Shown one piece after another: positions 17,315 to 53,481 of a stretch of DNA of 64,000 nt. The notes under the pieces are model-generated. The model saw only the letters and a program-made list of their open reading frames with translations. It made no database searches and was not told the DNA's origin. The stretch covers positions 1 to 64,000 of the forward strand of contig CBDBFU010000028.1 in the NCBI GenBank assembly GCA_965205025.1, in the 5' to 3' direction. The position numbers and the translations under genes were made by a program. Source of the DNA: Candidatus Poribacteria bacterium. Lineage in GTDB: Bacteria; Poribacteria; WGA-4E; WGA-3G. Each line of letters begins with the position of its first letter. Within the stretch, counting starts at the first letter, position 1.

Positions 17315-17567
17315 CTATAGATTGGACAGTTTTTTGCGTTACACATTTCACACCGCGAATCAACTGTATGGATGCCATTAATGCCTTCCCCGGGAATTGG
17401 ACCTTGGGGAGATATGACGTGACTACACACATTTCGCCCCACTGGGGCTACGGTTTGGCTCATCTGAGTTTATTTTTTCAGAGTTGGATTAGCGTGAGAA
17501 AAGTGACGAAAAACCAGAAACACTTTGAAAATATGTGAAGCACCTTTCAGAAATTGTCAAACTATAG
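17315..17567. mobile_element. 253-bp MITE with CTATAG termini and TAA duplication, related to the IS at 35-1009
   Basis: TAA|CTATAGATTGGACAGTTTT ... GAAATTGTCAAACTATAG|TAA; the right end matches the IS terminus at 991-1009. Contains REP-like hairpins and a B-element variant. Confidence 0.7.
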
Positions 17568-17673
17568 TAAATATTTAGAATTAAGATCCTGATTCAAAAT
17601 CATATAAATTGATTACTTATCCAATAAAGATTTGAGTTATCTTGCTCTACTAAAAAATCATAGGAGACATATT

Positions 17674-18390
17674 ATGAGAATATTCTGTATTCTAACAATT
17701 TCATTACTTTGTTGTTCCGTTGGGATGACGAAAGAGACATTCTTTTCCGCTTTGGAAAGTCAAGCAGATGTAGAAAAAGAGGGTGGAACAGTAGATGGGG
17801 GAGAATTTGCTCCCGGTAAATTTGGGAACGGGTTTGTCAGTAAAGAGGTTGGTGATGTGATACATTTTCCAGTTGAGGATCGATTTATCAACCTTGAAAA
17901 GGGAACAGTTGAATTGTGGGTGACGATGGGAATGGATATTTCCACTGTTACAGGTGAACTTTTCCTATTTATGACTTACAAACGTGGTACGGATGCTGTG
18001 TTTTTGCAATTTGACAGTGGTGGAAAAGCGCGTATGCGTGTTAAGAGTGCTGGAAGTTGGTTTAACGCTGATAGTGGTGCCTTAAATTGGAAAGAAGGTG
18101 AACATCACCACATGGCAGGAACATGGGGACCGGACGGGTTGAAACTATTCCTTGATGGAGAATTGGCAGCTGAAAATAAGACTGACCGTGGACCAACTGT
18201 TTTTGCAACATCATTTGAAGTAAATAATGCCTCTCCCCCTGATCCGAGATTTCCAACGAATTGTGTTGTGGATGGACTACGGATATCGGATCATCAGAAA
18301 GAGGTGGATGAATTAGTACTTGATGATCCTGCACCTGTTCAACCACGTGGTAAGTTAGCTTTGACATGGGGACACTTAAAATCCGATTAA
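17674..18390 (+). CDS. Secreted LamG/concanavalin A-like protein with C-terminal VQPRGKLALTWGHLK tail
   Basis: AGGAG RBS and signal peptide; 'PGKFGNG', 'GTVELWV', 'HHHMAGTW..LKLFLDG', 'VDGLRIS'. Confidence 0.8.
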   Translation: MRIFCILTISLLCCSVGMTKETFFSALESQADVEKEGGTVDGGEFAPGKFGNGFVSKEVGDVIHFPVEDRFINLEKGTVELWVTMGMDISTVTGELFLFMTYKRGTDAVFLQFDSGGKARMRVKSAGSWFNADSGALNWKEGEHHHMAGTWGPDGLKLFLDGELAAENKTDRGPTVFATSFEVNNASPPDPRFPTNCVVDGLRISDHQKEVDELVLDDPAPVQPRGKLALTWGHLKSD

Positions 18391-18588
18391 TCATTATATA
18401 ACCTAAGTTGCTTTCTATAAGTTTTTAGACTTGGAAACGCCGTCATTAATGAAAAAAATGCTGATAGTTAGCCAATATTTGTGTCATGAACTTCCAGTAT
18501 GCGTCATAAAGATGCACAAACTGGATGAAGATTAATTTTTTAATTCGGTAATTTTGGAAAAAGATCCAGTGCGGTTAGGAAACCGCAC

Positions 18589-20043
18589 TATAGGCGTCAA
18601 TTTTAGAAAAAGGATGTCTGATTTTTCAATAATAATTATTGTTAAGTGAAAACATCTCCTATATAATGTATAAAAATATTACCTTTTACTTTATACAAGA
18701 GGTGTTTCCAATGAATACATTATCACAGGTTCCTGAAAAAATGCAACAGATTCTAACAACCATTGCTGATGAAGCAGCCCTTGAAACAGGATTTTGCAAA
18801 AGAAATCGAAAACTTGCGGGGAGTCATTTTGCTCAGACACTTATTTATAGTTGGTTAGAAAATCCTGATGCCACCTATACTCAACTTACACATACTGCTG
18901 CTTCTCTCGGTACTCCAATCTCACGACAAGCGATTGAACAACGATTTACTGCTGAAGCTGCACAAACCCTCAAAGCAATCCTTGACGCGGCTGCGTCCGA
19001 AGTGATTTCTGCGGATCCACAAGTTCTCCCACTCCTTGAACAGTTCAACGGTATCTATATACAAGATAGTTCTTGGATAACACTCCCTGATACGCTTCAC
19101 GATATTTGGGAAGGTGCCAGTAAAAAGGATTATCCGAACAAATCCGAACTGAAACTCCATCTACGCTTCGATGTTGCTACAGGGACATTCGAACACTTTC
19201 AACTCACCAACGGCATCACCGCTGATAGCACTGTAGAAAAACAGATTGACCGGCTCCCCCAAGGGAGTTTACGCCTTGCGGATCTCGGTTATTTTTCGCT
19301 ACAAACCCTTCAAGAACTTACGGACGAAGGGGTCTTTTGGATTTCACGGTATAAAGTTAGGTGTTCGGTTTTTGACAATACAGGAAAGCCTCTTTGTTTA
19401 CATAAATGGCTCAAGTTTCAGACCGAAAACATTATCGAAACAGATATTTTCATAGGTTCAAAAAAGCGGATGAAAGTAAGATTAGTAGCTCAGAGACTCT
19501 CCGAAGAAGAAACCGAAAAACGACGACGAGATATCAACTATCGTGCTAAACGAAAGCATACACAAGCATCACAGGCACGACTCCAACTCGCAGGTTGGAA
19601 TATCTACATTACAAATATTGGAACGGATCAACTCACCGCTGAACAGATATGTGTCATTGCGCGGATTCGATGGCAGATCGAGTTGATATTTAAGTGCTTT
19701 AAAAGCCTTGGAAAAGTAGACACATCACGAAGTAAAAAACCGTATCGTATTCTATGTGAAATATATGCTAAACTGATCGCTGCAATCATTCGGCATTGGG
19801 TGATGTTGGTCATAGGATGGCGATGTTTACGGCATAGTTTATCGAAAACAGTAGAGCTTATTACGTCCTACACACGCACAATCACAATAAGCTTTCGCAA
19901 GTCAAAGAGACATCTTAGAGAGACATTTGATGAGATAAAACAAGTATTCGAAAACGGGTGCTACATTGAAAGAAGAGCTAATAGAAAAACAACATTGGAA
20001 TATCTTGAAAATGCTACAAAAAACCGCTAAATTGACGCCTATG
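18589..20043 (+). mobile_element. IS4-family insertion sequence, apparently intact
   Basis: TIRs TATAGGCGTCAATTT / AAATTGACGCCTATG; flanked by 20-bp direct repeats GTGCGGTTAGGAAACCGCAC at 18569-18588 and 20044-20063. Confidence 0.88.
18711..20030 (+). CDS. IS4-family DDE transposase
   Basis: 'IQDSS', 'LADLGYFS', 'RIRWQIELIFKCFKS' (YREK-like motif, with Y replaced); GAGG RBS before ATG 18711. Confidence 0.9.
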   Translation: MNTLSQVPEKMQQILTTIADEAALETGFCKRNRKLAGSHFAQTLIYSWLENPDATYTQLTHTAASLGTPISRQAIEQRFTAEAAQTLKAILDAAASEVISADPQVLPLLEQFNGIYIQDSSWITLPDTLHDIWEGASKKDYPNKSELKLHLRFDVATGTFEHFQLTNGITADSTVEKQIDRLPQGSLRLADLGYFSLQTLQELTDEGVFWISRYKVRCSVFDNTGKPLCLHKWLKFQTENIIETDIFIGSKKRMKVRLVAQRLSEEETEKRRRDINYRAKRKHTQASQARLQLAGWNIYITNIGTDQLTAEQICVIARIRWQIELIFKCFKSLGKVDTSRSKKPYRILCEIYAKLIAAIIRHWVMLVIGWRCLRHSLSKTVELITSYTRTITISFRKSKRHLRETFDEIKQVFENGCYIERRANRKTTLEYLENATKNR

Positions 20044-20124
20044 GTGCGGTTAGGAAACCGCACCTACCAGGTTTGGGAAATTTGTGCTGCAAGGTAGAAA
20101 CTTAGTTATTATTGAGGATAGTAT

Positions 20125-21192
20125 ATGTATAAGACAGAAAATCCGCTCTTTATATCTGGGACTGAGGGTTATAACACATTCCGTATTCCTGCACTGGTTG
20201 CTTCTAAGGAAGGGACACTTTTAGCCTTCTGTGAAGGTAGACGTAAGGGTGGTGGGGATTCAGGTGATATTGATCTTGTACTGAAACGTAGTTTCGACAA
20301 CGGTGAGACATGGGAACCGATGCAGGTCGCTGTTTCGACTGGTGAAGATACGGATGGTAATCCTGCTCCTGTGGTAGATCAAGATACAGGAACTATTTGG
20401 TTATTATTTTGTAAGAATTATGCTGATGGTGGTGAAGGTAAGATAATTGCCGGAGAAGCACCACGTACAGTTTGGATTACCTCAAGTAATGATGATGGAG
20501 AAACATGGACGGAACCGAAAGAAATTACATCTGATACAAAATTGGATACATGGACATGGTATGCTACTGGACCGTGTCACGGTATTCAATTGACAAGTGG
20601 TAGATTGGTAATCCCGTGTGATCATGTGCTTGGACAGAGTCGTAACTATGCTGAGATGGGGTATTCCCATTTGATTGTTAGTGATGATCATGGTGAGACC
20701 TGGCAGATGGCTGGTGATGCACAACCCGGTACTAACGAATCTACTGTTGTTGAAACTGTGGATGCTGATCTGTATTTTAATTGTCGTAACTATGTTGCAC
20801 CAAAACGTCGTGCTTATGCGTGGAGTTCTGACGGTGGAGATACATTCACTGAATTTGGTTATGATGATGATTTGATTGAACCTATCTGTCAAGCCAGTCT
20901 CGTGCGTTATACAGATGCGAATAACCATGATAAGAATCGTGTTCTGTTCTCTAATCCTGCGAGTGAATCACGTGAGAAGATGACGGTTAGAATCAGTTAT
21001 GATGAGTGTCGTAGTTGGAATGCTGGTAAGGTTTTACACGATGGTCCTTCTGCTTATTCTGATCTCTGTATTGATTCGGATATGAATATCTGTTGTCTCT
21101 ATGAACGGGGTGAACAGCATCCATCGCAGACAATTTCATTTGCGAAGTTTGATTTGGAATGGTTGACTGATGGTGAGGATACTTTAGCGTAA
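20125..21192 (+). CDS. Exo-alpha-sialidase (GH33)
   Basis: FRIP motif and several Asp-boxes (SFDNGETW, SNDDGETW, SDDHGETW, SSDGGDTF). Confidence 0.9.
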   Translation: MYKTENPLFISGTEGYNTFRIPALVASKEGTLLAFCEGRRKGGGDSGDIDLVLKRSFDNGETWEPMQVAVSTGEDTDGNPAPVVDQDTGTIWLLFCKNYADGGEGKIIAGEAPRTVWITSSNDDGETWTEPKEITSDTKLDTWTWYATGPCHGIQLTSGRLVIPCDHVLGQSRNYAEMGYSHLIVSDDHGETWQMAGDAQPGTNESTVVETVDADLYFNCRNYVAPKRRAYAWSSDGGDTFTEFGYDDDLIEPICQASLVRYTDANNHDKNRVLFSNPASESREKMTVRISYDECRSWNAGKVLHDGPSAYSDLCIDSDMNICCLYERGEQHPSQTISFAKFDLEWLTDGEDTLA

Positions 21193-21326
21193 CAGGATCT
21201 TTATATTACTGGAATAGTACCGGACTCGAATTGGGGTAATTATAATCCTTTTAGTATAGTGGTACCTTATTTTCCAAACTATAGTAGTGTCTAATATTGA
21301 GTTTAATTTGATAGATAGTATGTTAT

Positions 21327-22058
21327 ATGTTAATATATGTAAATATCAAACCGAGGGTCTACGTTGAAACTACAGTAATTAGTCACTTGGTTGCCCGTCC
21401 AAGTAATGACAAGATTTTAGCCTATTGGCAAAAGATAACCCGTCAATTGTGGGATGAACATACAGAACGATTTGAGTTTGTAATATCGGAGATAGTTAAG
21501 GATGAAATTCAACAAGGGGATGTAACCGCAGCAAAACAACGACTTGAAGTAGTATCATCACTTGATATATTGCAAAGTGTACCAGAAATAAGTATACTTG
21601 TGGAAATATTATTAGAGGTTGGGGCAGTACCTCAAAATTCTGTGATTGATGCACAACATATTGCTTTTGCAGCTGTACACGGTGTTGATTACTTAGTATC
21701 GTGGAACCTTAAACATCTGGTAAACGAAAACAAACGTGACTATATCAAGGAGGTATGTCAGAAGGCAGGATTTAAGCCGACAACCATTTGTACACCTATC
21801 GAACTAATTAAGGAAACCGAGATGAAAGAAACTTCAGATAAACATATAGACTATGATCCTGATACTTATACAAATCCAATCCTTGAAGAATGTTATAGAA
21901 TAAAATCAGAGTTAAATGCGCGATTCAAAACAGTTGAGGATTTCTTTACCTATATTAAGGCAAGAGAAGAAGAGAACAAACGCAATGGTGTCAAGTATGT
22001 TTCCTATTATGACCCAGAGAAACACAAAGCTGCTTTAAAAGCGTTGGAAGACGTATAG
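21327..22058 (+). CDS. PIN-domain (VapC-like) nuclease with C-terminal extension resembling the usual downstream partner gene
   Basis: 'VYVETTVIS', 'DAQHIAFA...DYLVSWNLKHL', 'ICTP.EL', then ~75 aa 'NPILEECYRIK'. Confidence 0.8.
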   Translation: MLIYVNIKPRVYVETTVISHLVARPSNDKILAYWQKITRQLWDEHTERFEFVISEIVKDEIQQGDVTAAKQRLEVVSSLDILQSVPEISILVEILLEVGAVPQNSVIDAQHIAFAAVHGVDYLVSWNLKHLVNENKRDYIKEVCQKAGFKPTTICTPIELIKETEMKETSDKHIDYDPDTYTNPILEECYRIKSELNARFKTVEDFFTYIKAREEENKRNGVKYVSYYDPEKHKAALKALEDV

Positions 22059-22202
22059 AGTATATCCAGCAACCAATTACCTGTATCCTTCCAATTTAAC
22101 TAAACTTACCTACAATAAATAGATTCCTACACAAACCCATCATATCCATATCTTGGTGTTTTCTACTCAAAAACTTTAAATACAAGACACTTTGCCGCTG
22201 AC

Positions 22203-23054
22203 CTATGCCACAGGGAAGGCATTTCCAACAAGTGGTTCACCATCTTCTACTTCGATTGTTGGAACTAATACATGACTTGGTGACTGTTTGTTGTTATAGC
22301 ATACATCTTGTGCCATGAAGATCATGACAAATGCACGGCGTTGATGATCTGTAACATTTGGCGGTGTACCGTGCCAGTTTAGGCAGTGATGAAACATGCA
22401 CTCTCCTGCTTTCAACTCTACCGGAATTCCATGACTTATATCTAAACTCCGTCTTTCTGTCCACGGATTTAGTGGGGGATCTTGTCCTTCTTCTTGTGCT
22501 TTTTTTGTTGCTGCATCATAAGCTGCTTTTGCTTTAACAGAGAATCGTTCGTCTTTATGGCTTTTCGGCATAACGTGCATACATCCACTGTCTACTGTGG
22601 CATCATCCAGTGCTAACCAACAACTGACAATGTTGGGTGGACTGAGTGGCCAGAAGAAGAAGTCGTGATGGAAACCGAAATGACCGTTATCTTTTGGTGG
22701 TTTAGAGATGACTTGGTCGTGCCAGAGTCGAACTTCTGGTGTCTCTAACAATGCGCGTGCTGTGCCTGCGATCAATGGATTATGGATTGCTGCTTCATAA
22801 CTTTTTTCCCGTTTCCACATATTGACGTATTGATGTATTGCTCTTGGGTGTCCACTACCACGGTTGAGTTTATCCTCTTTTCTATCGTGTCCGTATTTGA
22901 ATTCTGGTGATGAGTCGTCTCCTTCATTGAGTTCTAAATCGATGATGGCATCTAATCCATCACGCATGGTTTCTACACCGTCGTCATCTAATACCCTTCC
23001 GAATTTGAGATACCCGTTTTCCTGAAAAAAGTCGACTTGTTCCTGTGTTGCCAT
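22203..23054 (-). CDS. PhyH family dioxygenase
   Basis: 'FFQENGY', 'HHDF', 'CWLALDDATVDSGC', 'HHCLNWHGT'. Confidence 0.88.
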   Translation of the reverse strand: MATQEQVDFFQENGYLKFGRVLDDDGVETMRDGLDAIIDLELNEGDDSSPEFKYGHDRKEDKLNRGSGHPRAIHQYVNMWKREKSYEAAIHNPLIAGTARALLETPEVRLWHDQVISKPPKDNGHFGFHHDFFFWPLSPPNIVSCWLALDDATVDSGCMHVMPKSHKDERFSVKAKAAYDAATKKAQEEGQDPPLNPWTERRSLDISHGIPVELKAGECMFHHCLNWHGTPPNVTDHQRRAFVMIFMAQDVCYNNKQSPSHVLVPTIEVEDGEPLVGNAFPVA

Positions 23055-23368
23055 AGTATTCTCCTGAGTTGATTCTTAAGTTATTTGTACATATATGAAG
23101 TCTTTATTATGTATAGATTATAGCATATTTGTGTATATTGTGCGTATGATTGTTATCACATAGGTGTGTAAAGTTTTGTGAAGGAAAAAGTGTTAATATT
23201 TATCGTTCTGAAATGATTCCACTTTCACGGAAACCTTCACGGAGCAATTCTACGAACCCTTATTCTATAAGGGTTTATAATTTTGAGTATACCGATTTTC
23301 CGTGAATCACATACGTTAATATTTATATAACTTAAGTGTGAATAAGATGCATCTTTGGTTTTCATCTG

Positions 23369-23731
23369 ATAGCATTTCTATAAATGTTTATCCCATGAAC
23401 AGTTGTTATACGTGGCTTGAAATACTGCACAAACTGGATGAAGATTAAAATAATAATTCGGTAATGTGTTAGAAATTCGAATCAACGGTATGAATGCTAT
23501 TTAGCATTCCCCGTGGTTAGGAAACCGAACCTACCGAGTATGGGAAAATGGGAATTACCGAATTTATAGTAAACAATAAAATGAATACTACATTTTCTAT
23601 TGGCTCAACTTACGTTCGCGTCCCACACCTCTTCTGTAGGAGCGACCTCCCGGTCGCGACCAGGAGGTCGCTCCTACAAGTAAAGTGTCTAATTAAATCT
23701 AAAGTTTACTATAAAACTTAATCCTTATGAA
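23369..23731. repeat. Composite nested repeat: MITE shell containing a C-type REP, a B element and an IS630-type MITE
   Basis: Collinear with 35913-36138 apart from a B insertion at 23479-23512 and a MITE at 23567-23711. Confidence 0.7.
23567..23711 (+). mobile_element. 145-bp IS630-type MITE, copy 1
   Basis: TA|TAGTAAAC...CTAAAGTTTACTA|TA; right end matches the IS630 end at 31450-31462; internal palindrome GTAGGAGCGACCTCC...GGAGGTCGCTCCTAC; empty site near 36070. Confidence 0.88.
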
Positions 23732-24220
23732 GATTGCGATACAAATATCAAGCGGGTAGACCCCGCCCCTACGAAGAGGAAGAGAAGAGTCGCGAATCGG
23801 AGTTCCCTCCTACAGAAGAGTCTAATGAGTAAATTAACACCTATGGAGACAAAACTTTACTAACCCCTTCAATTATCTGTCTGTTTTCAAGTTTTTCAAA
23901 CTCTTTTAGTTTTTCAAGTTTTTCAAGTTGCTTTTTCAGAATTACCATTCTAAACTGTCCCTAAACCCTGTGGTAGACAGGGAATATAAAGGATTCGATT
24001 GATCGGTGAAAAATTTCAAAATTTGAAAAACTTGAAATGTATAGAGTATTTCACCTTATATTCCTCTGTATTTTTTTTAGACATTGTCTGTATATGTTTT
24101 GATGACATTTTCAATAACTGATAATTCTGAAGGTTGAAAGTGCGATATAAACATGGGGTTCATCCTATTTTCCATCGGGTGAATCAAGTTAATGTTGGAA
24201 ACAATCTTAGAATAGAAAAT

Positions 24221-24350
24221 ATGAAAAAAGTTACACTTTTTGTCACATGGTGTGACATTGAAATTGGGGTAAAAAACTGCTATAAACCCTTTTGTAGACT
24301 GACACCACGGCAATTTAAAAACAGAATTCAAAAATTTTAAAAATGTCGTT
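24221..24350. repeat. Dispersed ~130-bp conserved non-coding element, copy 1
   Basis: GAAAAAAGTTACACTTTTTGTCACAnnGTGTGACATT shared with 44872 and 61169. Confidence 0.7.
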
Positions 24351-24544
24351 TTTTCTCTTGTTTGCTTTTTGTTTTTGTGACATCCGATGTTAGCAAATTG
24401 TAAGGTATTCGTTTGTAAGGTATTTGTTGACAACATTTTTGTGATTATCCTATATGTGATTTTGATTTATGTATGTTAGTTGATTGATTCTTGTTATTTC
24501 TTCAATTTATTTTTTGTTATCGGTTGTTGGTTATCAGTTATTTT

Positions 24545-25170
24545 GTCTGAATCGCGGATTACGTGGATTTCACAGATTTCACGGAAGGGATTTCTGTGTA
24601 TGCTGAATGTATGTTGAGTATAGGTGTTCTTGTTTGAATCGAAGATTACACGGATTGTTGTCTGAATCGAAGATTACACGGATTACGAGGATTTCACGGA
24701 AGGGGTTACTGGGTATACTGAGTGTCTTGGGTAGTATATGTGGTTCTTGTCTGAAACGCGGATTACAAGGATTACGGGGATAAGAGTGTTTGGAGGGGAT
24801 AAGGAGTAAGAACACAAACTAAAAGTTTGTGGTACAAAGAGGCGTTTTCTGAATCGCAGATTACGCGGATTACAGGGATAAGAGTGTTTGGAGGGGATAA
24901 GGAGTAAGAACACAAACTAAAAGTTTGTGGTACAAAGAGGTGTTTTTCTGATTCGCAGATTACATGGATTACGCGGATTTCACGGAAGGGGTTACTGGGT
25001 ATACTGAATGTTTGTGTAGTATAGGGGTTCTTGTTTGAATCACGGATTACGCGGATTACGCGGATTTCACGGAAGGGGTTACTGTGTATGCTGAATGTCT
25101 TGGGTAGTATTAGGTGTTCTTGTTTTAATCGTAGATTACGCGGATTGTTGTCTGAATCGCAGATTACGCA
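24545..25170. repeat. Imperfect tandem array of ~85-100-bp units built on a 9-bp GGATTACGC-type microrepeat
   Basis: Recurring 'TGAATCGCGGATTAC...GGATTTCACGGAAGGG'; a near-exact ~98-bp duplication at ~24750-24945; a single unit also at 34179-34257. Confidence 0.8.
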
Positions 25171-25230
25171 GAGGAGATAGATTGTTGTTTGTAAAAATTT
25201 CTTTCAATGCTGGAACTTCGAATCAAGGAA

Positions 25231-26640
25231 TCAACTGTCATCAATAGAAAAAGGTGATTCTATCGGATCTTTACGAATCTCATCATGTTCAGCGGAATAG
25301 AAAGCCTGAAAAAACTTGAAATCAGACCGTTTATGTTCATTGCACTTATCTTCAATAATTTCAATGACTTTCATTTTATTCTCAAAAGATGTTCTCATCC
25401 CAAAGATGATTCCTTTTAAGGAGTTGAAATCATAAGTTAATGTGCGTTCATCTTTGTTGTCTAAACCTTTGGCGTTAGCATATAGAATTATTCGACGTTC
25501 CTTTTCATATTTCCAATCTCTGTTTTTAGTTGTGATGTAGCGTAAAAATTTATTCCAATATTCTTCCCTCCAGTGCTTTTCTTCTGCCTTATACCCAATA
25601 TGATTGGCACATTCAGAAATTTTCCCATCATCATCGGTGTACCATGTTTCCATAATTTCAGCAACTGTTCCAGATCCGAGAGAACAAAAGAAATCAATCT
25701 CTGTTGGTTTGTTTTCGTAATTTACCTTTCGTAATGCTGTTGTCCAAAACTTCTTGTCTTCCCAGATTATCTTTTCATCAAAAATCAGACATACACCTTT
25801 ATGAGCATCTGCATAGTTTGCCCAAGTAGTTAAGTTATCGAAATTCTCCATGAAACATGCTGTCCACCATTTAGGAAAAGGCAGGTTTATAAGGTTATCT
25901 AAATATATCCTTGGAAAGTCTAATAGTGTCAGTGTGTTTGGAATCAAAGTTGTATCTATGTTTGAGATTCCTTTAAATAATTTGTAAGCCGCGTATTTTT
26001 GTTTGAGTATTTGATTATCGTTATACTGTTGAAAAAATGACAATGCATTGTTAATTTTCTCAAACTCATTTTCATCAGTATTTTGTATTACTTGAAGAAT
26101 CTTTTCAGTAAACCAGTCTATACTTGGTAAATCCGATTTATCGCGAGATATTTCGGAATCGGACACAAGTTGATGAGTAATATGTGCTTTTTGTATAACA
26201 TCTAAAAGGATACTATGTATACATAGAAGATAATATCCGATTTCTTTAAAACAGATTCTTTGTTTTGTGTTTGAAAGTGCCCCAAGTATTTCCTTAATGT
26301 TTTTAACATTAAGGAAATTATTCCAAACATCATCAAATATATCTTTTTCCAATAAATTCTGTGGCTGTGTTAAAGTGACTCTAATTGGACTACTGTCCAG
26401 TTTTAATTTTACAGACTTTCCAAGAATTCTGTATTTCAGAAGATGTTGGTTCAAGTATGAAGCATAATGCCTAAAAAGGTTTGTCCAAACTATTTTATCA
26501 CCATTCCAGAACACATTTCTGTAAGCCTCCATCGGGTCATTCAATTCTTCTGGACCTGCAAAATAGACGGTCTGTTTTTTAAGTTCTTTATGTTGATCTA
26601 ATAGAGCGTTAATACTTCTGAATCTATAGAATTCTGACAT
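25231..26640 (-). CDS. DUF2971 domain protein
   Basis: 'ELNDPMEA', 'ACF......TWANYADAHKGVCLIF', 'TKNRDWKYEKERRI', 'LKGIIFG'. Confidence 0.85.
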   Translation of the reverse strand: MSEFYRFRSINALLDQHKELKKQTVYFAGPEELNDPMEAYRNVFWNGDKIVWTNLFRHYASYLNQHLLKYRILGKSVKLKLDSSPIRVTLTQPQNLLEKDIFDDVWNNFLNVKNIKEILGALSNTKQRICFKEIGYYLLCIHSILLDVIQKAHITHQLVSDSEISRDKSDLPSIDWFTEKILQVIQNTDENEFEKINNALSFFQQYNDNQILKQKYAAYKLFKGISNIDTTLIPNTLTLLDFPRIYLDNLINLPFPKWWTACFMENFDNLTTWANYADAHKGVCLIFDEKIIWEDKKFWTTALRKVNYENKPTEIDFFCSLGSGTVAEIMETWYTDDDGKISECANHIGYKAEEKHWREEYWNKFLRYITTKNRDWKYEKERRIILYANAKGLDNKDERTLTYDFNSLKGIIFGMRTSFENKMKVIEIIEDKCNEHKRSDFKFFQAFYSAEHDEIRKDPIESPFSIDDS

Positions 26641-26834
26641 GTTATCTCTTTCTGCTAGTTACGTAACTATGTGATTTAACCTGTCTTTTTCAAAATCTAA
26701 GAAAATCAACGACTCAGTTTTGTGCGTTATTTCAAGACATACTAAATATCTGTTCATGGGATAAAAATTATATAAATGGTATGATTATAGATTCTACTAT
26801 AAACCAACATTAACACCTCTCATAGAAATTTTAT

Positions 26835-27752
26835 TCAACCCTTGTCCCCGGATCGCAGAAAAGACTCAATTAACTCTCCTACTGGAGAATTGCTCTGCTC
26901 TATGAAATCGGTATCCTCAATTCCCATAGAATTCAACCATGTTTCCCAATATGCCTCAATAATATCAAAGTCTTTTTCAAACGGAATAACAATATCATTC
27001 ATCTTTTTACCACGCAGTGCAATTTCAACCATTAGGAATTTTACATTGAAGTCACCGAAATCTTCATCAATAGACATCAAACCTTCACTATTGTGAATCT
27101 TTTCTATTGCCTTAGGATCATTTCGAAATTTTTTGACATCCATGTATGTGCCTTTTTCACGCAACTCCTGAATATCCTCATCAAAATCAAGATAACCGTC
27201 TGAGATGCAAAGAATTAAGTTGTGACAATTTGGCAACAGATAACTCTTTAATTCATCTCGGAACCACTTCCAGATGTCCGATCCAGTTTGTTTCTGTGTC
27301 AAAACAAATTCGTATAACTTAGGTAATGTCTCAAGAATGTCTTTTGTCTGCTTATCTAAGTCATTTTGTACGCTTGGTATATTTCTATGTCCTCTACCAT
27401 CCTTACCACCCCTATCTTTGATTATAAGTTTGTTTGTAAGCTCAGATGGAATTGATTTTCTTGATATTTGGTTTGGTATAAATATTCGTAAACGACTGTC
27501 ATATTTAAGTTCGGTTTGTTCTATTCGTTCTTTTACGTATTTGTTAAATACAGCAGTCGTCTCTTTCACGATTTCTATATCTTTTTCTATTTGTCCAGGA
27601 TTTATCTCTTTAGAAACACGATTTGATGTATCCAAAATAATGATTACGTTAATGGGTTCTAACGGGGTTGATGTTGATTTAGCACTACACGATGTTATAA
27701 CATTCGAAAGACAGAATGTTATAACACACATTATAACTACAAATATCTTCAT
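26835..27752 (-). CDS. Secreted/lipoprotein with VWA-like (MIDAS-like) fold, function unknown
   Basis: Signal peptide ending 'ITSC'; 'NVIIILDTSNRV', 'GSDIW', 'ILCISDGY'; GGAG RBS. Confidence 0.65.
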   Translation of the reverse strand: MKIFVVIMCVITFCLSNVITSCSAKSTSTPLEPINVIIILDTSNRVSKEINPGQIEKDIEIVKETTAVFNKYVKERIEQTELKYDSRLRIFIPNQISRKSIPSELTNKLIIKDRGGKDGRGHRNIPSVQNDLDKQTKDILETLPKLYEFVLTQKQTGSDIWKWFRDELKSYLLPNCHNLILCISDGYLDFDEDIQELREKGTYMDVKKFRNDPKAIEKIHNSEGLMSIDEDFGDFNVKFLMVEIALRGKKMNDIVIPFEKDFDIIEAYWETWLNSMGIEDTDFIEQSNSPVGELIESFLRSGDKG

Positions 27753-27773
27753 TTTTTTGATATTATAACTCCT

Positions 27774-29243
27774 TTAAGTTATGCGAAGGGTCGCTTTGTA
27801 TGCCTCAAGGGTTTCGCTTGCTAAAGTTTGGATATCACTAATTTGGTTTGCAACATCAGTAGGTAATTGAGTTTGGCTTTGGGCAACATATTTGCACCAT
27901 CCACTTACAAATTCATTTGTATTTGCCTCTAATTTCTTTAGATCAACACCCTTTTTGTGATGACGTTTGCGGATAATCTCAAATTCGGATTCACACTGGT
28001 TTATTTCCATTTGGAATGCATCTATCTGTTCATTCAATTCGTTAATTTGGCTCTGTTGATTTTCCTTTTGTGTGTTTAACCGTGCGATTTTTACTTGAAG
28101 TTCCTGTTTTGCAGTGTCTTCTAGTTGATTAGTATAGTTTTTCAACTCATCCTTGAGATCATTCATTTTTATATCTAATTGTTCTATCTCGGTAGTTAGG
28201 ACGTTTAATTCAACTAAACTATCATTCTGTTCATATCTTTTTTGTTGTTCCAACTGATTAGATTCGTCTTGTTGTGGTTTTTCCCCTCTCCAAAGCTTTA
28301 TAACCCAGAACAAACCAAATCCCAGTAATAGTGAAACGCCAAAACCTAAAAGAAGTACTGACAAAATTTCTATCCAATTCTCCGCAAATTTGAAAATGAC
28401 ATCTTCACCTTTGGTAAATTCATGCATCTGCTTGGAGATCTTCACTGCAATTATTGCATCAATGGCCAAAGTTGCACCTAAGAGAAAACCAAATATCCAC
28501 CATTTTCTATGGTCATAACAAAGATGAACAAGAACAGCAAGTGTTAAGAAAATTGATGGAAACATAATAACGAACCAATTTTTCGGAGACTTCCATGCCT
28601 CAAAAAATGCTCTGTGAATGATTATATGTCTTTTTTCGGCAGTTGTTCCAATCCCTTCTGTGAAAGTTCTGTCCCCTACTGAAGCATAAAAGATAATGAG
28701 ATAGAAAGCCAGTCCAAGAATAACAAGAGTGAGTACACCTGCCAAAATACGTTCTGAAATGGATAGAGGTTTCTTGGAAATACCCTGACTCAATCCAGAA
28801 TCAGCGTTTAGTTCTACTTCTGTTGGTGCTTCTAACTCCGTTTCAATTTTGGTCTGATTCACTTTTTTCTCTGCTAATTCTGAACCATACGTTTCTATTT
28901 CTTTTTTCAACACATCAATACGAGGAGAGGAAAACGTTGTTTCTGCAGTTAACGGATTGCCCAATTGGGCATTCAGTTCCGATAACTCCATATCCATCTC
29001 AGTGAGTTCTTGTGTCAACGCAGATAAGGACTCTTGTCGGTCAAGCTTCTGTTGTTCAAGTCTTTCTTTATCTTCTGATAAAGCATCTACTTCGTTTTGG
29101 ATCTGTGATTCACTAATTTCTATTTCCAATTCTTCGTTACGGACAATGACATTAAGATGGTCTTGTAGTGCTTCAGTGATTCCTCTACCAGCAGCTGCAC
29201 AAGCAAACCCATTATCTGCACTATGGTAAGGTGTTCCGTTCAT
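27774..29243 (-). CDS. Membrane protein with four TM helices flanked by long coiled coils
   Basis: Heptad-rich N- and C-terminal regions around four hydrophobic segments; start overlaps the upstream gene. Confidence 0.75.
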   Translation of the reverse strand: MNGTPYHSADNGFACAAAGRGITEALQDHLNVIVRNEELEIEISESQIQNEVDALSEDKERLEQQKLDRQESLSALTQELTEMDMELSELNAQLGNPLTAETTFSSPRIDVLKKEIETYGSELAEKKVNQTKIETELEAPTEVELNADSGLSQGISKKPLSISERILAGVLTLVILGLAFYLIIFYASVGDRTFTEGIGTTAEKRHIIIHRAFFEAWKSPKNWFVIMFPSIFLTLAVLVHLCYDHRKWWIFGFLLGATLAIDAIIAVKISKQMHEFTKGEDVIFKFAENWIEILSVLLLGFGVSLLLGFGLFWVIKLWRGEKPQQDESNQLEQQKRYEQNDSLVELNVLTTEIEQLDIKMNDLKDELKNYTNQLEDTAKQELQVKIARLNTQKENQQSQINELNEQIDAFQMEINQCESEFEIIRKRHHKKGVDLKKLEANTNEFVSGWCKYVAQSQTQLPTDVANQISDIQTLASETLEAYKATLRIT

Positions 29244-29655
29244 ATTCTTCCTCTTCTTCGGTGTTAGTTTTTTTCTTGAAACGCGTTAAGAAATGTGATG
29301 TCCACTTTCTCCAAAGACTATCAGAACTAACACAATTGGCATGTGTTGGTTGACGTTTATGAACTTCTTTCAGTTTTTGTATTGCTTCTGAGGGTTCTGG
29401 AAATGTGAAAAACTCACGATCTTTGTTAGGACGAAACTCGGCAAGTTCCTGATGTATCAAGGTTTCAAGTTCCTTTGGATTGTCACATAATTCCTCATGA
29501 ATAACCTCAAAAGGTTGTGGTACACCAGTTCCAACCGTATCATTGTAGCCATGATATAGTTGTTCTGCTCGAGCTTGTGCAGTTTGCGTTTCCGTAAAAC
29601 CGATTTTTACTAAGCCCGGCATTGCCTTGTTCGTTAAGATATAAACACTTCCCAT
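29221..29655 (-). CDS. T5orf172/MUG113-like GIY-YIG nuclease-domain protein
   Basis: 'GSVYILTNKAMPGLVKIGFT', 'TGVPQPFEV', 'LETLIHQEL..FR.N.DREFF'. Confidence 0.85.
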   Translation of the reverse strand: MGSVYILTNKAMPGLVKIGFTETQTAQARAEQLYHGYNDTVGTGVPQPFEVIHEELCDNPKELETLIHQELAEFRPNKDREFFTFPEPSEAIQKLKEVHKRQPTHANCVSSDSLWRKWTSHFLTRFKKKTNTEEEEEYERNTLP

Positions 29656-30556
29656 AAAATTATCCTTTCATACTACAAATCATTCGTCAATATCCTTAGC
29701 TTGTATTGAAAAGGTGCAATACCTTCGGTAAAAATTGACGATGTTTCATAATTTAACCTAAGTTGCTATTTGTTCAGTAGGAATCCTTCGATTCTGATCG
29801 GTGTTGTCCCAAAGACAGTTAGTCTGTGTCCACCCATAAAGTCGACTGGTGTTGAATTTGGTCTTACAGGAATAAAAAGTCTTCCAAAAAAACCTGAAAT
29901 TTTTTCTAATCCTGAAATCTCGGAGCTTCTCTGAACAATCGGTTTTAATCACTATGGCACTATTCAATTTAAATTAGGGAATTTGTGATGGTATTGCAAT
30001 ATAAATCATATTTGTAGAAGATCAATCCCATTTTCTACAGAATAAAGATAGAGTATTGACAAGGCTACTTAATTCTATGATCCTAAGAGGATAGTTCAAA
30101 CTATAGTATTTTTTATATATACCTTGTAATATATTATACAATAACACTGTTGAAATATAATGTCAAGTATATTAAAAAAATCACCTTATTAAGGCACAGG
30201 ACATAACTGATTAAACGTGACAACATTATACCAATTTTACTTAATTGGTTTACATTAATTGCAAAACGGAGAAGCTAATTTAGTTTAATGGGATTCTATA
30301 AACATTCCGTCCCTACGGGACTCAGTCTGTGTGTTGCATAGTTTTTCTATAAACATTCCGTCCCTACGGGACTCAGTCTATGTGTTGCATAGTTTTCTAT
30401 AGACATTTCGTCCCTACCAAATCAAGGATTCAACGGTATGAATGCCATTTAGGCATTCCCCGGGCATTCACTGGGGCTTAGGATATTGGTGATAACGACT
30501 TCTATAAACATTCCGTCCCTACCAAATCAAGGAATCAACGGTATGAATGCTATTTA

Positions 30557-31462
30557 TAGTGACCATCAGATTTAAAGAGACATTTTTTGTATTTTGTAAT
30601 AGAATGTGTCTATTATGGCATATTCAACAGATTTACGCAAACGCGTTTTAGATTTTATTGAAGCTGGCGGGAAAAAAGCCGAAGCTGCCCGTCGTTTTTC
30701 TCTGAATCGTTCAACGATTTATAGATGGTTAGCCGCTGAAGACCCGCTTTCGACCCAAAAACCCGGGGCCCAAAAGCATGAGAGTGCTTGACGAGGCAGC
30801 ACTGAAAAAACATGTCGCTGATTTCCCAGACTTGACGCAAAACGAACGCGCCTCACATTTCGGTGTTTCAGAGTCTTCTATAGCCTATGGGTTGCGGAAA
30901 CTCGGCATCACACGAAAAAAAAACAATCGGATATAAGGAGCGGTGCGATGAGAAACGTAGGGACTACCGTCAGACACTCACCGAGAAACACGCCGCTGGT
31001 AAAAAGATAGTTTATGTTGATGAATGCGGTTTTCGTGCTGAAAGTTATAGGCGTCATGGCTATGCCCCGAAAGGTGAATGTGTCTTAGGTTTGATCTCAG
31101 GCACAAGAACACGAACAACGACGCTGGTCGCAGCGCGTATCGGTTCGACTTTTACGGCACCTTGTTTGTTTGATGGAAGCTGCGATTCTGCGTGTTTCAA
31201 TGCGTGGCTTGAAGCCTATTTATGTCCACGGCTGTCTGTCTCAGACGTGGTTGTTCTTGATAATGCGAAGATCCACAAGACGCTTCGGACGCGTGAGTTG
31301 ATAGAAGCATCGGGAGCAGAGGTATTGTTTTTGCCACCTTATTCACCGGACTACAACCCGATTGAACACGACTTTGCGAATATCAAACGTCTCAGAGAAT
31401 ACAATGCTGATATAACCATTGATGAAGTTATAAACATGTATCATTAATTCTAAAGTTTACTA
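30557..31462 (+). mobile_element. IS630-family insertion sequence (906 bp, TA duplication)
   Basis: TA|TAGTGACCATCAGATTTAA...TTAATTCTAAAGTTTACTA|TA; the empty target GAATGCTATTTAGCATTCCC is present at 23492-23511. Confidence 0.88.
30615..31447 (+). CDS. IS630 transposase (orfA/orfB joined at an A9 slippery site near 30915; extra frameshift near 30765)
   Basis: 'MAYSTDLRKRVL' HTH; orfB 'YVDECGF', 'VVLDNAKIH', 'LPPYSPDYNPIE'. Confidence 0.85.
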
Positions 31463-31701
31463 TAGCATTCCCCGGGGTATGAATGCCATTTAGGCATTCC
31501 CCGGGACTCAAGAATATGAAGCAAGCCTCTTTGCTATAAACATTCCGTCCCTATGGGACTCAAGAATGTGTTTCAAAAGGGTAGAAGAGTTGGGAATTGG
31601 AGTTCCTTTCCATAGAAGAAAGATCGAATCAAGAGGTGGGAAAGATCGGGGATGGGAATCCATCCTATAGCAGAAGAGAAGATTGGGGAGATGACGGGGT
31701 A

Positions 31702-32765: not shown

Positions 32766-32864
32766 GAAATCCTTTGATGTTTGTATTATTCCGTTACAAC
32801 CGTGGTGGGAATACATTTTAATATGGATGCATTGCTGTGATCTTCTTTCTACTTTTGCTTATTT

Positions 32865-33016
32865 AACGTGAGTTTGATAAATCAGATATTAATACTCGAA
32901 TCAACGGTATGAATGCTATTTAACATTCCCAGCGGTTAGGAAACCGCACCTACCGAGTCTATGGGAGTGATATTTTTGGATAATGTAGCTTATTTGCCTA
33001 TTATCAAACTCACGTT
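32865..33016. mobile_element. 152-bp MITE with perfect 16-bp TIR, carrying a B element and a C-type REP
   Basis: AACGTGAGTTTGATAA ... TTATCAAACTCACGTT. Confidence 0.75.
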
Positions 33017-33098
33017 TGTTTATATTTTCAGTTGGTGTAGTTGTCTTGTATCCGATTTATCATTTTCACATTACTTTTTTGTTGTGAGTTTCAACGCG

Positions 33099-34000: not shown

Positions 34001-34502
34001 GATTATTCCTTCTGATATTCTGCTAAGTCAGAATAGTAGAAAAGTGGCTAAAAAATTGGATAGAGTTTAATAAACAGTTCTCTAATCCTTAACACAATTA
34101 GAGGATAATAACAATACACCAAAAAGTCAAGTAAATCACTACAGCTGAAATCCGTATGTTTTTAGGTTGTTTTGAGTTGTCTGAATCACAGATTACACGG
34201 ATTACGCGGATTACACGGAAAAGAGAGGTATTTATCAGTAAGATTTTCTTTCAATGCAGATACTAAGGCAGGGGAATCAACGGTATGAACGCCTTTTGGC
34301 TTCACCGAGTATGAATGCCATGAATCAACGGTATGAATGTCATAAGGCATTCCCCAGGAAACCGCACTTACCATGGGATGGAAAAGATCCTAATCCCCTC
34401 TCTACAGAAGAGTCGGGAATTGGAATTCCCTCCTACAGAAGAGAAGATCGAAAATCGGATTCCTATCCTACAGTTAAAAATAGTGTGGACTGTTCATTAG
34501 AT

Positions 34503-35912: not shown

Positions 35913-36138
35913 TACCATTTTTATAAATGACTATTCCATGAAGGATTGTTAAGCCTGCCTTGAAATAATGCACAAACTGAATGAGGATTAAAATAATAAT
36001 TCGGTAATGTGTTAGAAATTCGGTTCGGTTAGGAAACCGAACCTACCAAGTTTGGGAAAATGGGAATTACCGAATTTAAAACTTAATCCTCATAAAGTTT
36101 GTGCTACATTAAAGAGACAATTATTATCAGAAATGGTA
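35913..36138. mobile_element. Composite nested MITE
   Basis: TACCATTT...AAATGGTA shell > CACAAACT/AGTTTGTG hairpin > ATGAGGATTAA/TTAATCCTCAT > AATTCGGTAAT/ATTACCGAATT > GGTTCGGTTAGGAAACCGAACC REP. Confidence 0.75.
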
Positions 36139-36905: not shown

Positions 36906-36931
36906 TATAGTTTCCTTATGGAAATTAGGTG

Positions 36932-44290: not shown

Positions 44291-44669
44291 TACCAATTTT
44301 TACTTAATTAGTTTACAAAGAAATTCTATAAACATTCCGTCCCTACGGGACTCATTCGGTTAATTGATCCGTTTTCTATAGACATTCCGTCCCTACGGGA
44401 CTCAAGATAATGGATAAACACGTTTTCTATAGACATTTCGTCCCTACGGAACTCAAAATAGTGGATAAGCACGTTTTCTATAAACATTCCGTCCCTACCA
44501 AATCAAGGAATCAACGGTATGAATGACATAAGTTATTCCCCGGGACTCAATATATAAGATATTCCCCTTTTTCTATAGACATTCCGTCCCTACGGGACTG
44601 GAATTTTTACAACTAATTAATCCTATTTAGATGAAAATCGTAATGTAGATATTTCAATTGAAAATGGTA
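44291..44669. mobile_element. MITE (TACCA...TGGTA, TAA duplication) containing five family-A hairpins, one interrupted by a B element
   Basis: TAA|TACCAATT...GAAAATGGTA|TAA; A units at 44324, 44374, 44425, 44476 and 44571; B insert 44499-44541. Confidence 0.8.
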
Positions 44670-51606: not shown

Positions 51607-51836
51607 TATAATAGATACATTCTGTCTTTAGGGATTTCACCGGTAAAACGTATCGCAGCTTTACCTTTATATTTACTTGATATATTGTCTATATCTCGAC
51701 GATGTTTTTTATTAGCAAACACTACACCGGATATAAGTTCTGTAGTTTTTGGACTGATTTCACAATCAACAATAAACAACCACTTATTGGGAAATTTCCT
51801 AATCATTTCTTCATAAGTAAGACGTTGCTTAGACAT
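51606..51836 (-). CDS. Small DUF5678-like partner of the aspartyl protease
   Basis: AGGAG RBS; 'EEM.RKFPNKWL.IVD' and 'FTGEIP'; stop overlaps the protease ATG. Confidence 0.6.
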   Translation of the reverse strand: MSKQRLTYEEMIRKFPNKWLFIVDCEISPKTTELISGVVFANKKHRRDIDNISSKYKGKAAIRFTGEIPKDRMYLL

Positions 51837-52185
51837 TTTAATCTCCTAAATTTATCATCCTAATGAATATAAAGTGAACATGCACATAAGGTTATACACT
51901 TTTATATATAAAATGTCAATTAAAAATCAACTTGACAAGGCTATTTAGTTTTAAGATTAGATGATGTTACCAATCGTACCTCTCCTCTGTATGAGGATAC
52001 TCAAGGAATACAAATGGAATTCATACTCTTGATTTGGATTCCCGATTCATCTCCTGTGTTCTCTGATCCAACTAAAGAACCTTAAACCTTCTTTTCGGCG
52101 TCCTCTGCGTACTCCCTCCTATCCGTGATTCAGACACAACACAAACCAACAAAATACATAGTTTATTATAAAACAGAAACTGATT

Positions 52186-53202
52186 CTACCGGAACGGCAT
52201 AGCATATAGCAAACCGCCCTGGGACCACGGTTTGTTTACACCGCGAGGGAGTCCAAGGGGTGTGAGATTACGATCAAAGATTTCACCGTAATTTCCTACG
52301 TTAGCGATGACTTGACGCGCCCAGTCATTCGGTAATCCGAGTTTTTCACCCATACCCTCTGTCTCTCCAAGAAACCGTTTAATCTCAGGATTTCCAGATT
52401 TGAAGGTCTCGACATTTTCCTGTGAAATTCCATACTCTTCTGCAAAGAAAGTTGCATATACAACCCAACTTACAATGTCGTTCCACTGGTTATCTCCGTG
52501 AATGGTTACTGGTCCTAAGGGTTCTTTAGATACGGTTATATCCAATATAATATGTTCATCAGGATTTTTTAAGGATTGCCGACGGGAAAGTAGTTGGGAT
52601 TTATCACTGGTCACAACATCACAGCGTCCATGGTCATAACTCTGGTATAGGGTTTCTGTTTCTTCATAAACGATGGCTTCAACATCAATTCCGATTGCCC
52701 GTACTGTATCGGCTAAATTCAACTCGGTTGTACTGCCTGCGGTAACACCGAAAGTTGCACCTTCCAATTCCTTTAGGGAGGTAATTCCGAGTGCTTTCCG
52801 TAGCATGAACCCTTGACCATCGTAAAAAGTAGGTGGACAAAAGTCAACGCCATTAGCTGTATCGCGTGTAAGTGTCCAGGTTGTGTTACGAATTAGGACA
52901 TCAATCTCCCCTGTTTGTAACGCTGGGAAACGATCTGCACCTTTTAGGGGACGAAATTCGACTTTATCAGGATCACCAAAGACGGCTGCGGCAATTGCTC
53001 TACCGTAATCTACATCAAATCCTTCCCATCTACCATCTTGACTGAGGTATCCGAAACCGGGAAGTTCTTTATTGACACCACATATTAGACGTCCTCTGTC
53101 TATCACTTTTTGCAGAACGCTATCTCCGTTTTGTGCGAACAGTGGGGTGATAAAGGAGAGAGCGATAATTAATATGGATGTTTGAAATAATATCTTTTTC
53201 AT
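52186..53202 (-). CDS. aapJ: General L-amino acid ABC transporter substrate-binding protein
   Basis: Signal peptide; 'RGRLICGV', 'RNTTWTLTRD', 'FYDGQGF', 'SKEPLGP', 'VGNYGEIFDRN', 'GGLLYAMPFR'. Confidence 0.92.
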   Translation of the reverse strand: MKKILFQTSILIIALSFITPLFAQNGDSVLQKVIDRGRLICGVNKELPGFGYLSQDGRWEGFDVDYGRAIAAAVFGDPDKVEFRPLKGADRFPALQTGEIDVLIRNTTWTLTRDTANGVDFCPPTFYDGQGFMLRKALGITSLKELEGATFGVTAGSTTELNLADTVRAIGIDVEAIVYEETETLYQSYDHGRCDVVTSDKSQLLSRRQSLKNPDEHIILDITVSKEPLGPVTIHGDNQWNDIVSWVVYATFFAEEYGISQENVETFKSGNPEIKRFLGETEGMGEKLGLPNDWARQVIANVGNYGEIFDRNLTPLGLPRGVNKPWSQGGLLYAMPFR

Positions 53203-53481
53203 GAGTCCTCTCTATATTTATATTGTATTTAACGTGAGATGAGTATAAGTAATATTAAGTATCGTGCGATAAATCAACACCGAATCCGTCAAATCAAGGA
53301 ATCAACGTATGAATGACATTCCTGGTATGGAATTCATCGGGGAAACACGACAGATGTGTCAAATTAAGTATACACCTTTCGCCCCGCTGGGGCTATTCAA
53401 AATTCTATCAGTTTTTCCAGAAAATAGAAATGCTAAATCCGAACAAATATGATCAATTGATTGGTCAGGGATTCCTTCACA

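Follow-up and report, generated by a model that had tools for sequence, protein, structure and literature searches.

The small dispersed repeats (SDRs) of Elhai et al. 2008 are said to measure 21-27 bases, to nest in one another and in miniature inverted-repeat transposable elements (MITEs), and to share a predicted secondary structure. Insertion sequences (ISs) of the IS200/IS605 group and their short derivatives have no inverted ends, make no target duplication, recognize hairpins in single-stranded DNA and insert in an orientation-specific manner. IS1397-type ISs target the palindromes known as repetitive extragenic palindromic (REP) sequences, a subject also of Tobes and Pareja 2006. ISPpu9 of Pseudomonas putida, according to the accessible part of its description, also inserts in REPs. 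In the available portion of one report, SDR5 of Nostocaceae is placed between bases three and four of the HIP1 palindrome (PMC4390886), and the available portion of another found no SDR-like repeats outside Nostocaceae among the cyanobacteria examined (PMC5861425). How repeats of well under 100 bases spread without inverted ends has been a standing question since the Nostoc SDRs. The element described here, termed B, is a hairpin-bearing repeat of 35/36 bases that lies inside other hairpin-forming repeats in a 64,000-nucleotide stretch of Candidatus Poribacteria DNA (assembly GCA_965205025.1, contig CBDBFU010000028.1, positions 1 to 64,000, forward strand; hereafter the window).

On balance, B is best read as a 35/36-base non-autonomous insertion module of Poribacteria, with rare primary insertions and passive multiplication by its hosts, a reading held with a slight preference. 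The case for mobility is indirect and comes from sequence comparison: paralogues with and without B, the many contexts in which it lies, its arrays and a 250-fold range of copy number all point to movement. An earlier note on the window had described B as a mobile micro-element parasitizing REPs. The observation is real, with corrections, and one part of its interpretation stands, namely a discrete micro-module with fixed ends set inside hairpin repeats, in one orientation per host. The proposed link to HUH transposases is not supported, and the replication-strand bias finds no clear support.

Anatomy and copies of B

The genome to which the window belongs (G000) is an assembly of 33 contigs and 5.66 Mb. 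B opens with an 8-base handle, [GA]AATCAA[GC], present once or up to five times in a row, and continues with a hairpin of 26/27 bases; it measures 35/36 bases with a single handle. The last handle reads [GA]AATCAAC and often stands after extra [GA]AATCAAG octamers. The hairpin, which lies in the 3′ two thirds of the element, runs through GGTATGAATG, two bases that are free to vary but paired, the loop, and CATTC[CA]CCG, while the 8-base handle at the 5′ end is unstructured. B begins with [GA]AATCAAC and closes with CATTCCCC(G), and its flanks show no TA. The hairpin attributed to B by the earlier note is borne out by the folding of one copy as DNA (-6.8 kcal/mol, z = -3.8).

The genome contains 278 core matches (125 on the + strand, 153 on the -) and 278 hairpin modules, each 26 or 27 bases long, which parse into 256 composite elements (118 + / 138 -). 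One handle octamer is present in 160 elements, two in 50, three to five in 22 and none in 24; the hairpin is single in 222 and repeated in tandem, two or more times, in 34. Runs of at least two octamers lead into B in 15 of 17 cases, and handle and hairpin therefore belong together. The two innermost stem pairs vary, as C-G, A-T or T-A, yet each remains complementary in 251 of 263 copies. An alignment of 45 distinct copies from many genomes has 24 invariant columns out of roughly 35, and 10 of its cells are changed on both sides of a pair, a number reached in 0 of 500 shuffles. A comparison of conservation between B and its flanks within the composites was discarded, as copies had been chosen by their match to B and its conservation was thereby inflated. 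An origin from CRISPR repeats was also rejected: a period scan of the window's genome found no regular arrays with unique spacers, and a spaced pattern run over 112 genomes of the family gave only tandem or composite B arrays.

Within the window, the core GAATCAACGGTATGAATG matches eight times with at most three mismatches, always on the + strand, against a chance expectation of 0.11; none of 100 shuffled windows reached eight. The matches start at 17357, 23479, 30427, 30532, 32898, 34274, 34322 and 44508 (+). The starts 30418, 30523 and 44499 denote the same copies as 30427, 30532 and 44508, counted from an extra CAAATCAAG handle. The features of the window are given below, with A, C, D, P and Q denoting families of hairpin-forming repeats.

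17357..17392, +: degenerate B in a D-like REP context, with two core mismatches and a weakened hairpin
23479..23513, +: B (handle and hairpin) in place of the 5′ arm of a C hairpin, in a MITE-like unit; empty counterpart at 36022
25218..25235, +: partial B, two handle octamers and no hairpin
30418..30462, +: B, handle octamer doubled, inserted in a family-A REP after GTCCCTAC and ahead of the REP's 3′ side
30523..30556, +: 5′ part of B (handles, 5′ arm and loop as far as TA) in a family-A REP, truncated by an IS
30557..31464, +: 908-bp IS630-type insertion sequence in the loop of the B hairpin, with TA on each side; DDE_3 transposase open reading frame at 30887-31447
31465..31474, +: 3′ arm of the split B hairpin
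31475..31503, +: second complete hairpin unit, adjoining the GGGAC arm of the A REP
32898..32932, +: B at a C hairpin, a composite of the 23479 kind
34274..34307, +: degenerate B
34322..34356, +: B running into the 3′ half of a C hairpin
36022..36043, +: uninterrupted C hairpin (empty state) in a MITE-like unit as at 23479
44333..44600, +: five tandem family-A REP units, starting at 44333, 44383, 44434, 44485 and 44580, the fourth of which holds B
44499..44542, +: B, handle octamer doubled, inserted precisely at the boundary of GTCCCTAC and GGGAC; hairpin partly decayed
52002..52036, -: degenerate B behind the GGGAATC of a Q-type hairpin repeat
53271..53342, +: sibling element (the handle of B with another hairpin), whose loop contains a nested, degenerate B

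As the earlier note had read it, B at 44499 splits a family-A unit exactly, uninterrupted units standing at 44333, 44383, 44434 and 44580, and the same junction recurs at 30418 and 30523; folding confirms the decay of the hairpin of the 44499 copy. The abutment described for 23479 and 32898 is right in that B sits at the C hairpin, which is intact at 36022-36043, and falls short in that six bases of the 5′ arm have been exchanged for B plus TG. Of the two supposed half-copies, the one at 31477 joins with 30532 into a single B whose loop is split by the 908-bp IS, and the one at 25218 is handle only. The copy placed at 53290 exists as a degenerate B, though nested in the loop of the sibling element. 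The note's one-strand picture holds for the core search (8/8 on +), but a degenerate reverse-strand B was found at 52002-52036, and the chance of 1/128 put on the bias is an invalid figure because copies are non-independent trials. All hairpin repeat families are on the + strand from 12.7 to 53.4 kb (A 14/14, D 8/8, C 5/5, Q 5/5); family A has 15 units in the window, the single - unit lying at 2617.

A separate observation concerns positions 34185-34215, where a tandem run of 9-base units (GGATTACAC / GGATTACGC) stands beside a repeat starting with TTTCTTTCAATGC. Similar runs occur elsewhere in the genome, for instance on contig C14.

Hosts, junctions and subtypes

B is found in at least eight other, unrelated hairpin-forming repeat families, plus B itself. 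These hosts include two REP families tied to Y1/RAYT (REP-associated tyrosine transposase) genes and the inner hairpin of an IS630-type MITE. The contexts, their junctions relative to uninterrupted units and the dominant B subtype, where one was scored, are as follows.

Family A: GTCCCTAC / B / GGGAC; clean insertion in the loop ahead of GGGAC; dominant loop CCATTTAGG (14/21)
Family D: GCCCCGC / B / GGGGC, and variants; B in place of T(G) in three kinds of D-type hairpins; dominant loop CCTTATGG (14/32)
Loop of the C hairpin: B in place of TA in four C subfamilies
Second C position: 3′ of the C hairpin
5′ arm of the C hairpin within MITE-like units: the commonest context (48/256); B plus TG in place of six bases; dominant loop CTATTTAG (38/48)
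P repeat: B in place of TC; dominant loop CCTTAGGG (11/19)
Q repeat: a further host
Loop of another B or of a sibling element: B in place of TTA in the loop of another B

An empty paralogue, continuous through the junction and lacking B, exists in the genome for 221 of the 256 elements. In the best filled/empty pairs, the paralogues are 95.8-97.5% identical over 120-143 bases and differ by B alone. Zero to three target bases are lost upon insertion, or six in the MITE context, and a duplication was never seen. This agrees with the earlier claim, supported by the same comparison, that B lacks both terminal inverted repeats and target duplications. Uninterrupted units outnumber filled ones, with 223 for A, 128 for D, 165 for C, 47 for P and 53 for Q. 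Orientation within a host is uniform, the forward to reverse ratio being 33:0 in A, 41:0 in D and 20:0 in C.

In 74 of 256 elements the flanks of B can pair into a stem 4 bp or longer, whereas re-paired controls gave a mean of 36.5 and a maximum of 56. Among non-redundant contexts the count is 30 of 143, against 16.0 in the controls. B thus favours hairpins, yet does not always sit in the loop. Its 7+7-base contexts number 143, of which 112 are singletons, and its left flanks end in TAC, CGC, GGT, TTC, AAA, TAT, TCC and others, without a common target word. Five of the 256 units are chimeric (e.g. C3:183577 and C7:63862), with a D (or C) left arm, B, and an A right arm; they look like products of recombination between the B copies of neighbouring REPs, with deletion of the intervening DNA.

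Each context has one dominant B subtype. The 3′ end follows the same pattern, CACC being found in 22 of 34 D contexts versus 2 of 28 A contexts. One dominant subtype per context means that most copies within a context descend from one composite, so that most B copies appear, from their sequences, to have spread along with their hosts. The earlier note had foreseen common descent of all interrupted copies from one composite as an argument against an insertion element, and this is partly the case. Independent insertions are still required in view of the number of contexts, the minor subtypes found in every one of them, the use of other hosts by relatives, and the head-to-tail arrays that B forms. 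In the relative G087, for example, Q-type hairpins serve as hosts, and one array contains seven B units with a 35-base period; an array in G085 has ten units in which three loop variants are interleaved.

Distribution, strand orientation and candidate enzymes

Across the bacterial order, B was counted with a 17-mer pattern allowing at most one mismatch, for which the reversed control pattern gave 0 or 1 match per genome. B is present in 40/40 genomes of the window's genus (39 relatives and its own genome) and 61/65 of a second genus of the family, in 0/7 from other genera of the family and in 1/47 from the other three families of the order. Among species of the two genera, copy number ranges about 250-fold, from 2 (G003) to 549 (G085), with forward and reverse counts roughly equal within each genome. 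A search with an exact 18-mer, one genome per species, listed 80 loci: 74 in Poribacteria, 5 in ‘uncultured bacterium’ and 1 in Spirochaetota. The Spirochaetota locus has no hairpin and was dismissed as a chance match; so were five exact 17-mers in viral contigs, none of which has the 3′ arm of the hairpin. A covariance model of the 45 aligned copies was run on five genomes from ‘empty’ genera, three of which (two further genera) contained between one and four relatives. These relatives have the handle of B and a GAATG...CATTC core with differing outer bases; the G067 match is partial only.

The sibling elements combine a AAATCAAC handle with the GAATG...CATTC core and complementary outer bases, which lengthen the stem. 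They are low in copy number, being found at 53271-53342 of the window, on contigs C23, C12, C20 and C4 of the genome and in G072 and G069 (loci L157-L160), and are present also in genera without B proper.

The orientation of B was followed along the genome. In the window's genome, neighbouring B clusters are co-oriented in 79 of 113 cases, an effect that weakens with distance, from 39/47 at 5-15 kb to 9/17 beyond 60 kb. All hairpin families behave in this way: every pair of families shows 63-82% same orientation at 3-20 kb, and adjacent hairpin-repeat clusters keep their orientation in 187 of 258 cases. As co-orientation is common to all hairpin families, the effect is not special to B. Orientation counts run 47:5 then 1:19 on contig C2 and 2:63 on contig C14, whatever the local gene strand, and the regional polarity of this genome is real. 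A, D, C, P, Q and B are co-oriented over 100-300 kb and switch together, for example at C2:30000-420000 and C14:120000-450000.

The replication-strand bias proposed in the earlier note finds no clear support: totals are balanced, GC skew is indifferent, and the order of orientations looks random in the complete relatives G005, G087 and G017. GC skew shows no difference between + and - copies, while AT skew differs and goes with gene strand. Adjacent B copies have the same orientation in 31/63 cases in G005 and 38/76 in G087. Neither genome has a two-arc structure, the score being reached by 121/500 and 254/500 shuffles; with exact matches only, 86/1000 shuffles reach it. These non-significant tests lend a replichore model no support. 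In G017, a hand count of the 100 places listed out of 164 gave 52 + and 48 -, with 53 of 99 adjacent pairs alike. B lies against flanking co-directional genes by 88 to 41, and empty hosts lean alike (A 86 to 51, P 21 to 8).

The REP identity of family A, which the earlier note had assumed, is well founded. The window's genome has three Y1_Tnp genes (RAYT-like, 157 aa, 100 bits), all within 35 kb of contig C27 (loci L013, L014 and L015) and each between inverted family-A arrays: the upstream tandem A array (52-base period) is reversed, and the downstream A units are forward. This is the classic REP-RAYT arrangement, and family A is a true REP. Contig C27 also has the highest G+C among the contigs (0.417). 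Family D flanks Y1 genes in relatives, arranged as A is here. At L174 (G069:C1:4908440-4911784), a Y1_Tnp gene has eight reversed D units upstream and two forward units downstream, which makes D the REP belonging to a second RAYT lineage of the bacterial family. Inverted arrays around a RAYT gene are thus true of A and D and false of B. None of the three Y1 genes of the window's genome has B at its ends, and in five relatives a handle-plus-hairpin match lies within about 600 bases of only 1 of 30 Y1 loci. REPINs replicate as inverted doublets; a few head-to-head B pairs 24 bases apart occur among the G017 places listed. The number of B copies follows neither that of Y1 genes nor that of A REPs, as the following genomes illustrate.

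G087 (one contig): B 205, Y1 matches 0, A REPs 0
G001: B 131, Y1 matches 0, A REPs 0
G010: B 142, Y1 matches 0
G003: B 2, Y1 matches 3, A REPs 239
G009: B 9, Y1 matches 21, A REPs 9
G070: B 0, Y1 matches 33

Together, G087, G001, G010 and G074 have 51-205 B copies each and no PF01797 match. The IS200/IS605-like HUH link of the earlier note fails on these counts, on the single hairpin of B and on the lack of a common target word.

IS630-type elements bear another relation to B. A 1240-bp IS630-type element (DDE_3 plus helix-turn-helix domains) has eight near-identical full copies in the window's genome (at least 99.8% identity), among them C7:209829-211068 and copies on C12, C2, C20, C18 and C13 (locus L148). 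Seven of the eight stand at the loop TA of a B hairpin, in varied host contexts and both orientations, and the eighth lies in the loop of another palindrome. This target choice is strikingly narrow for its IS family. Of the 308 termini of this IS and of a MITE with its ends, 60 adjoin B half-hairpins, and the MITE is nested with B in both directions. The 908-bp IS has 11 copies in the genome, one of which, that of the window, is in a B loop. The transposase of the 1240-bp IS is encoded in 32 of the 112 family genomes, is missing from the B-rich G017, G087, G016 and G014, and is present in G072, which has no B. This distribution is independent of B; B is therefore a preferred target of the 1240-bp IS and not its passenger, and the IS630-type transposase was ruled out as the mobilizer of B. 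Thirty-eight 5′ parts of B have no nearby 3′ arm: in most of those read, the interrupting DNA is an IS630-type element, a MITE or another B, and the remainder are truncated or decayed. At window position 30762, inside the 908-bp IS, the contigs of all four sequencing runs of near-identical strains are one base shorter, which may reflect a one-base insertion in the IS copy of the window or the alignment of other IS copies there.

Spread of B and comparison with known systems

According to the preferred reading, an insertion module amplified by its hosts, primary insertions of B would be rare. A putative trans-acting factor would act on single-stranded DNA in its folded form, recognize the handle and stem arms, which are invariant, and join the B block into other extruded hairpins. 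Afterwards, the bulk of the copies would be multiplied passively by the hosts, through REP mobilization by RAYTs and MITE transposition. The factor itself would probably be neither a Y1/RAYT enzyme nor an IS630-type transposase. That 24 positions are conserved over more than 100 species favours recognition of a specific sequence and speaks against copying by accident only. A bolder version, in which B and its siblings are enzyme-orphan 35-base mobile modules that have lasted throughout a family of Poribacteria, are moved by a putative chromosomal structure-specific single-strand recombinase or nuclease able to recognize handle and hairpin and to join the block into any extruded hairpin, and represent a second, independent origin of the SDR phenomenon, is tentative and would need some luck to be right.

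Several results weigh against an insertion module. Among the differences listed between window positions 17000-36999 and the four runs of near-identical strains, there is no gain or loss of 35 bases; run contigs that bridge 23479, 32898 and 34274/34322 are all filled, most contigs break at repeats, and as run contigs drop rare variants the polymorphism result says little. No longer element with the ends of B, and none encoding an enzyme, was found. The filled/empty pairs are all paralogues, since the intergenic DNA of the best relatives (85-91% gene identity) is unalignable. Hairpin targeting is weaker than the loop picture implies, as only the 74 elements mentioned above stand directly between complementary arms, and in the MITE context an arm is replaced and no loop is entered. 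The link between subtype and host implies that independent insertions may be few, and that ‘one orientation per host’ rests on few events. Finally, either structural selection or a switch of template from one arm to the other could account for the covariation of the stem.

In a rival account, B is not mobile at all. A few accidents, such as template switching or gene conversion between stalled hairpins, would have placed it in its hosts, and host amplification plus slippage would have done the rest. The strong subtype-host link fits such a history, as do the replacement rather than duplication of target bases, the untidiness of some junctions (six bases exchanged for B plus TG), the slippage-like tandem growth of octamers, hairpins and whole units, the chimeric D-left/A-right units, the monomorphism of near-identical strains and the failure to find an enzyme. 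It accounts poorly for a 35-base block with fixed ends that occupies one position in four C-hairpin subfamilies and three D-type hairpins, for 143 distinct contexts with 112 singletons, for the use of other hosts, such as the Q-type hairpins of G087, in relatives without A, and for loop variants interleaved within a single array. Neutral copying would also not yield 24 positions that stay invariant in over 100 species spread over two genera, with two more genera keeping the handle and hairpin core; sequence-specific recognition or selection is called for. As no movement or enzyme was seen, the accident-plus-hitch-hiking rival stays alive, although it is rather unlikely.

An HUH Y1 transposase (IS200/IS605 or RAYT type) that moves B as a minimal single-strand element, parasitizing REPs with a replication-strand bias, would explain why A and D, both Y1-linked here or in relatives, receive B in a single orientation and without duplication, and would suit the co-orientation of hairpin repeats over long stretches regardless of local gene strand. 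Relatives with 131-205 B copies have neither a Y1 gene nor an A REP, however, and G003, with 239 A REPs, has two B. B is also absent from the ends of the three Y1 genes here and nearly so from the Y1 loci of five relatives; it has a single hairpin and left flanks with no shared word, its orientations follow no two-arc order in complete genomes, and its + and - copies have the same GC skew. Such an origin is improbable. Equally hard to credit is a functional cis-element, either a protein-binding site or an RNA hairpin, kept by selection and nested only incidentally. The invariant handle and stem arms, the free but paired inner bases and free loop, the conservation of B across the bacterial family and its orientation against co-directional flanking genes would all be expected of one. 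A range of 2 to 549 copies among congeners is nevertheless hard to reconcile with a needed function, the host repeats share the gene-orientation bias, and B lies almost wholly within selfish repeats, forms spacer-less tandem arrays and includes decayed copies (17357, 34274 and 52002). An Rfam scan of the window returned no match.

If the module reading holds, B offers a second system for the question left by the Nostoc repeats, in an unrelated phylum with more than 100 sequenced species, a 250-fold spread in copy number and some genomes without the obvious suspect enzymes. Were a putative recombinase involved, the range of 2-549 copies among congeners would make its gene findable by comparative genomics. 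B also illustrates that micro-repeats can form parasitic layers, with B inside REPs and MITEs and IS630-type elements inside B, which matters for the reading of intergenic DNA. The same layering bears on assembly breaks in the genomes of sponge symbionts and on the hairpin hot spots of some insertion sequences. The literature searched, which excluded most subscription journals, yielded no description of REP-like or smaller repeats of Poribacteria.

Among mobile DNA of other kinds, the REP-targeting insertion sequences have hairpin landing sites, as does the 1240-bp IS in B loops, and therefore describe the invader of B and not B, a gene-less element shorter by a factor of some 25-35. MITEs of the IS630/Tc1 type are small, non-coding and abundant like B; unlike them, B has no terminal inverted repeats or TA duplication, and its copy number does not depend on the transposase. 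Both terminal inverted repeats and TA duplications are present in the IS and MITE that interrupt B. With IS200/IS605 elements B shares the lack of inverted ends and of target duplication, both found on testing, and one orientation per host; on the preferred reading, it would also share the recognition of a hairpin in single-stranded DNA. It differs from them by having one hairpin instead of one at each end, by the lack of a left-end target word, by replacing target bases and by its independence of Y1 genes. The REP/REPIN-RAYT systems (Bertels and Rainey 2011, PMC3116915; GTAG-tagged REPs, PMC3733652), as far as the accessible parts of these sources describe them, resemble B as short hairpin repeats in hundreds of copies that are long-lived in a lineage and have sequence-specific arms and a free loop. 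In contrast to the REPs so described, B flanks no Y1 gene, abounds in genomes in which no Y1 genes or A REPs were found, and nests inside REPs without being one.

The SDRs of Nostocaceae are the closest analogue. Like B, they are, in the portions of the literature available, very small, non-coding repeats that lie precisely inserted in palindromic sequence, and they are regarded as mobile although no enzyme is known. B shares their size class, being dispersed, non-coding and shorter than about 40 bases (35/36 bases, 256 elements). It also enters hairpins precisely and nests, as SDRs are in part reported to do. B differs from SDRs by its occurrence in Poribacteria, its length of 35/36 bases, its repeatable 8-base handle and its head-to-tail arrays. 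Its targets are REPs, MITEs and other hairpins, that of SDR5, in the part of the source at hand, being HIP1; the likeness is one of kind. By this analogy, B would be a second, independent example, in kind, of the small-dispersed-repeat phenomenon.

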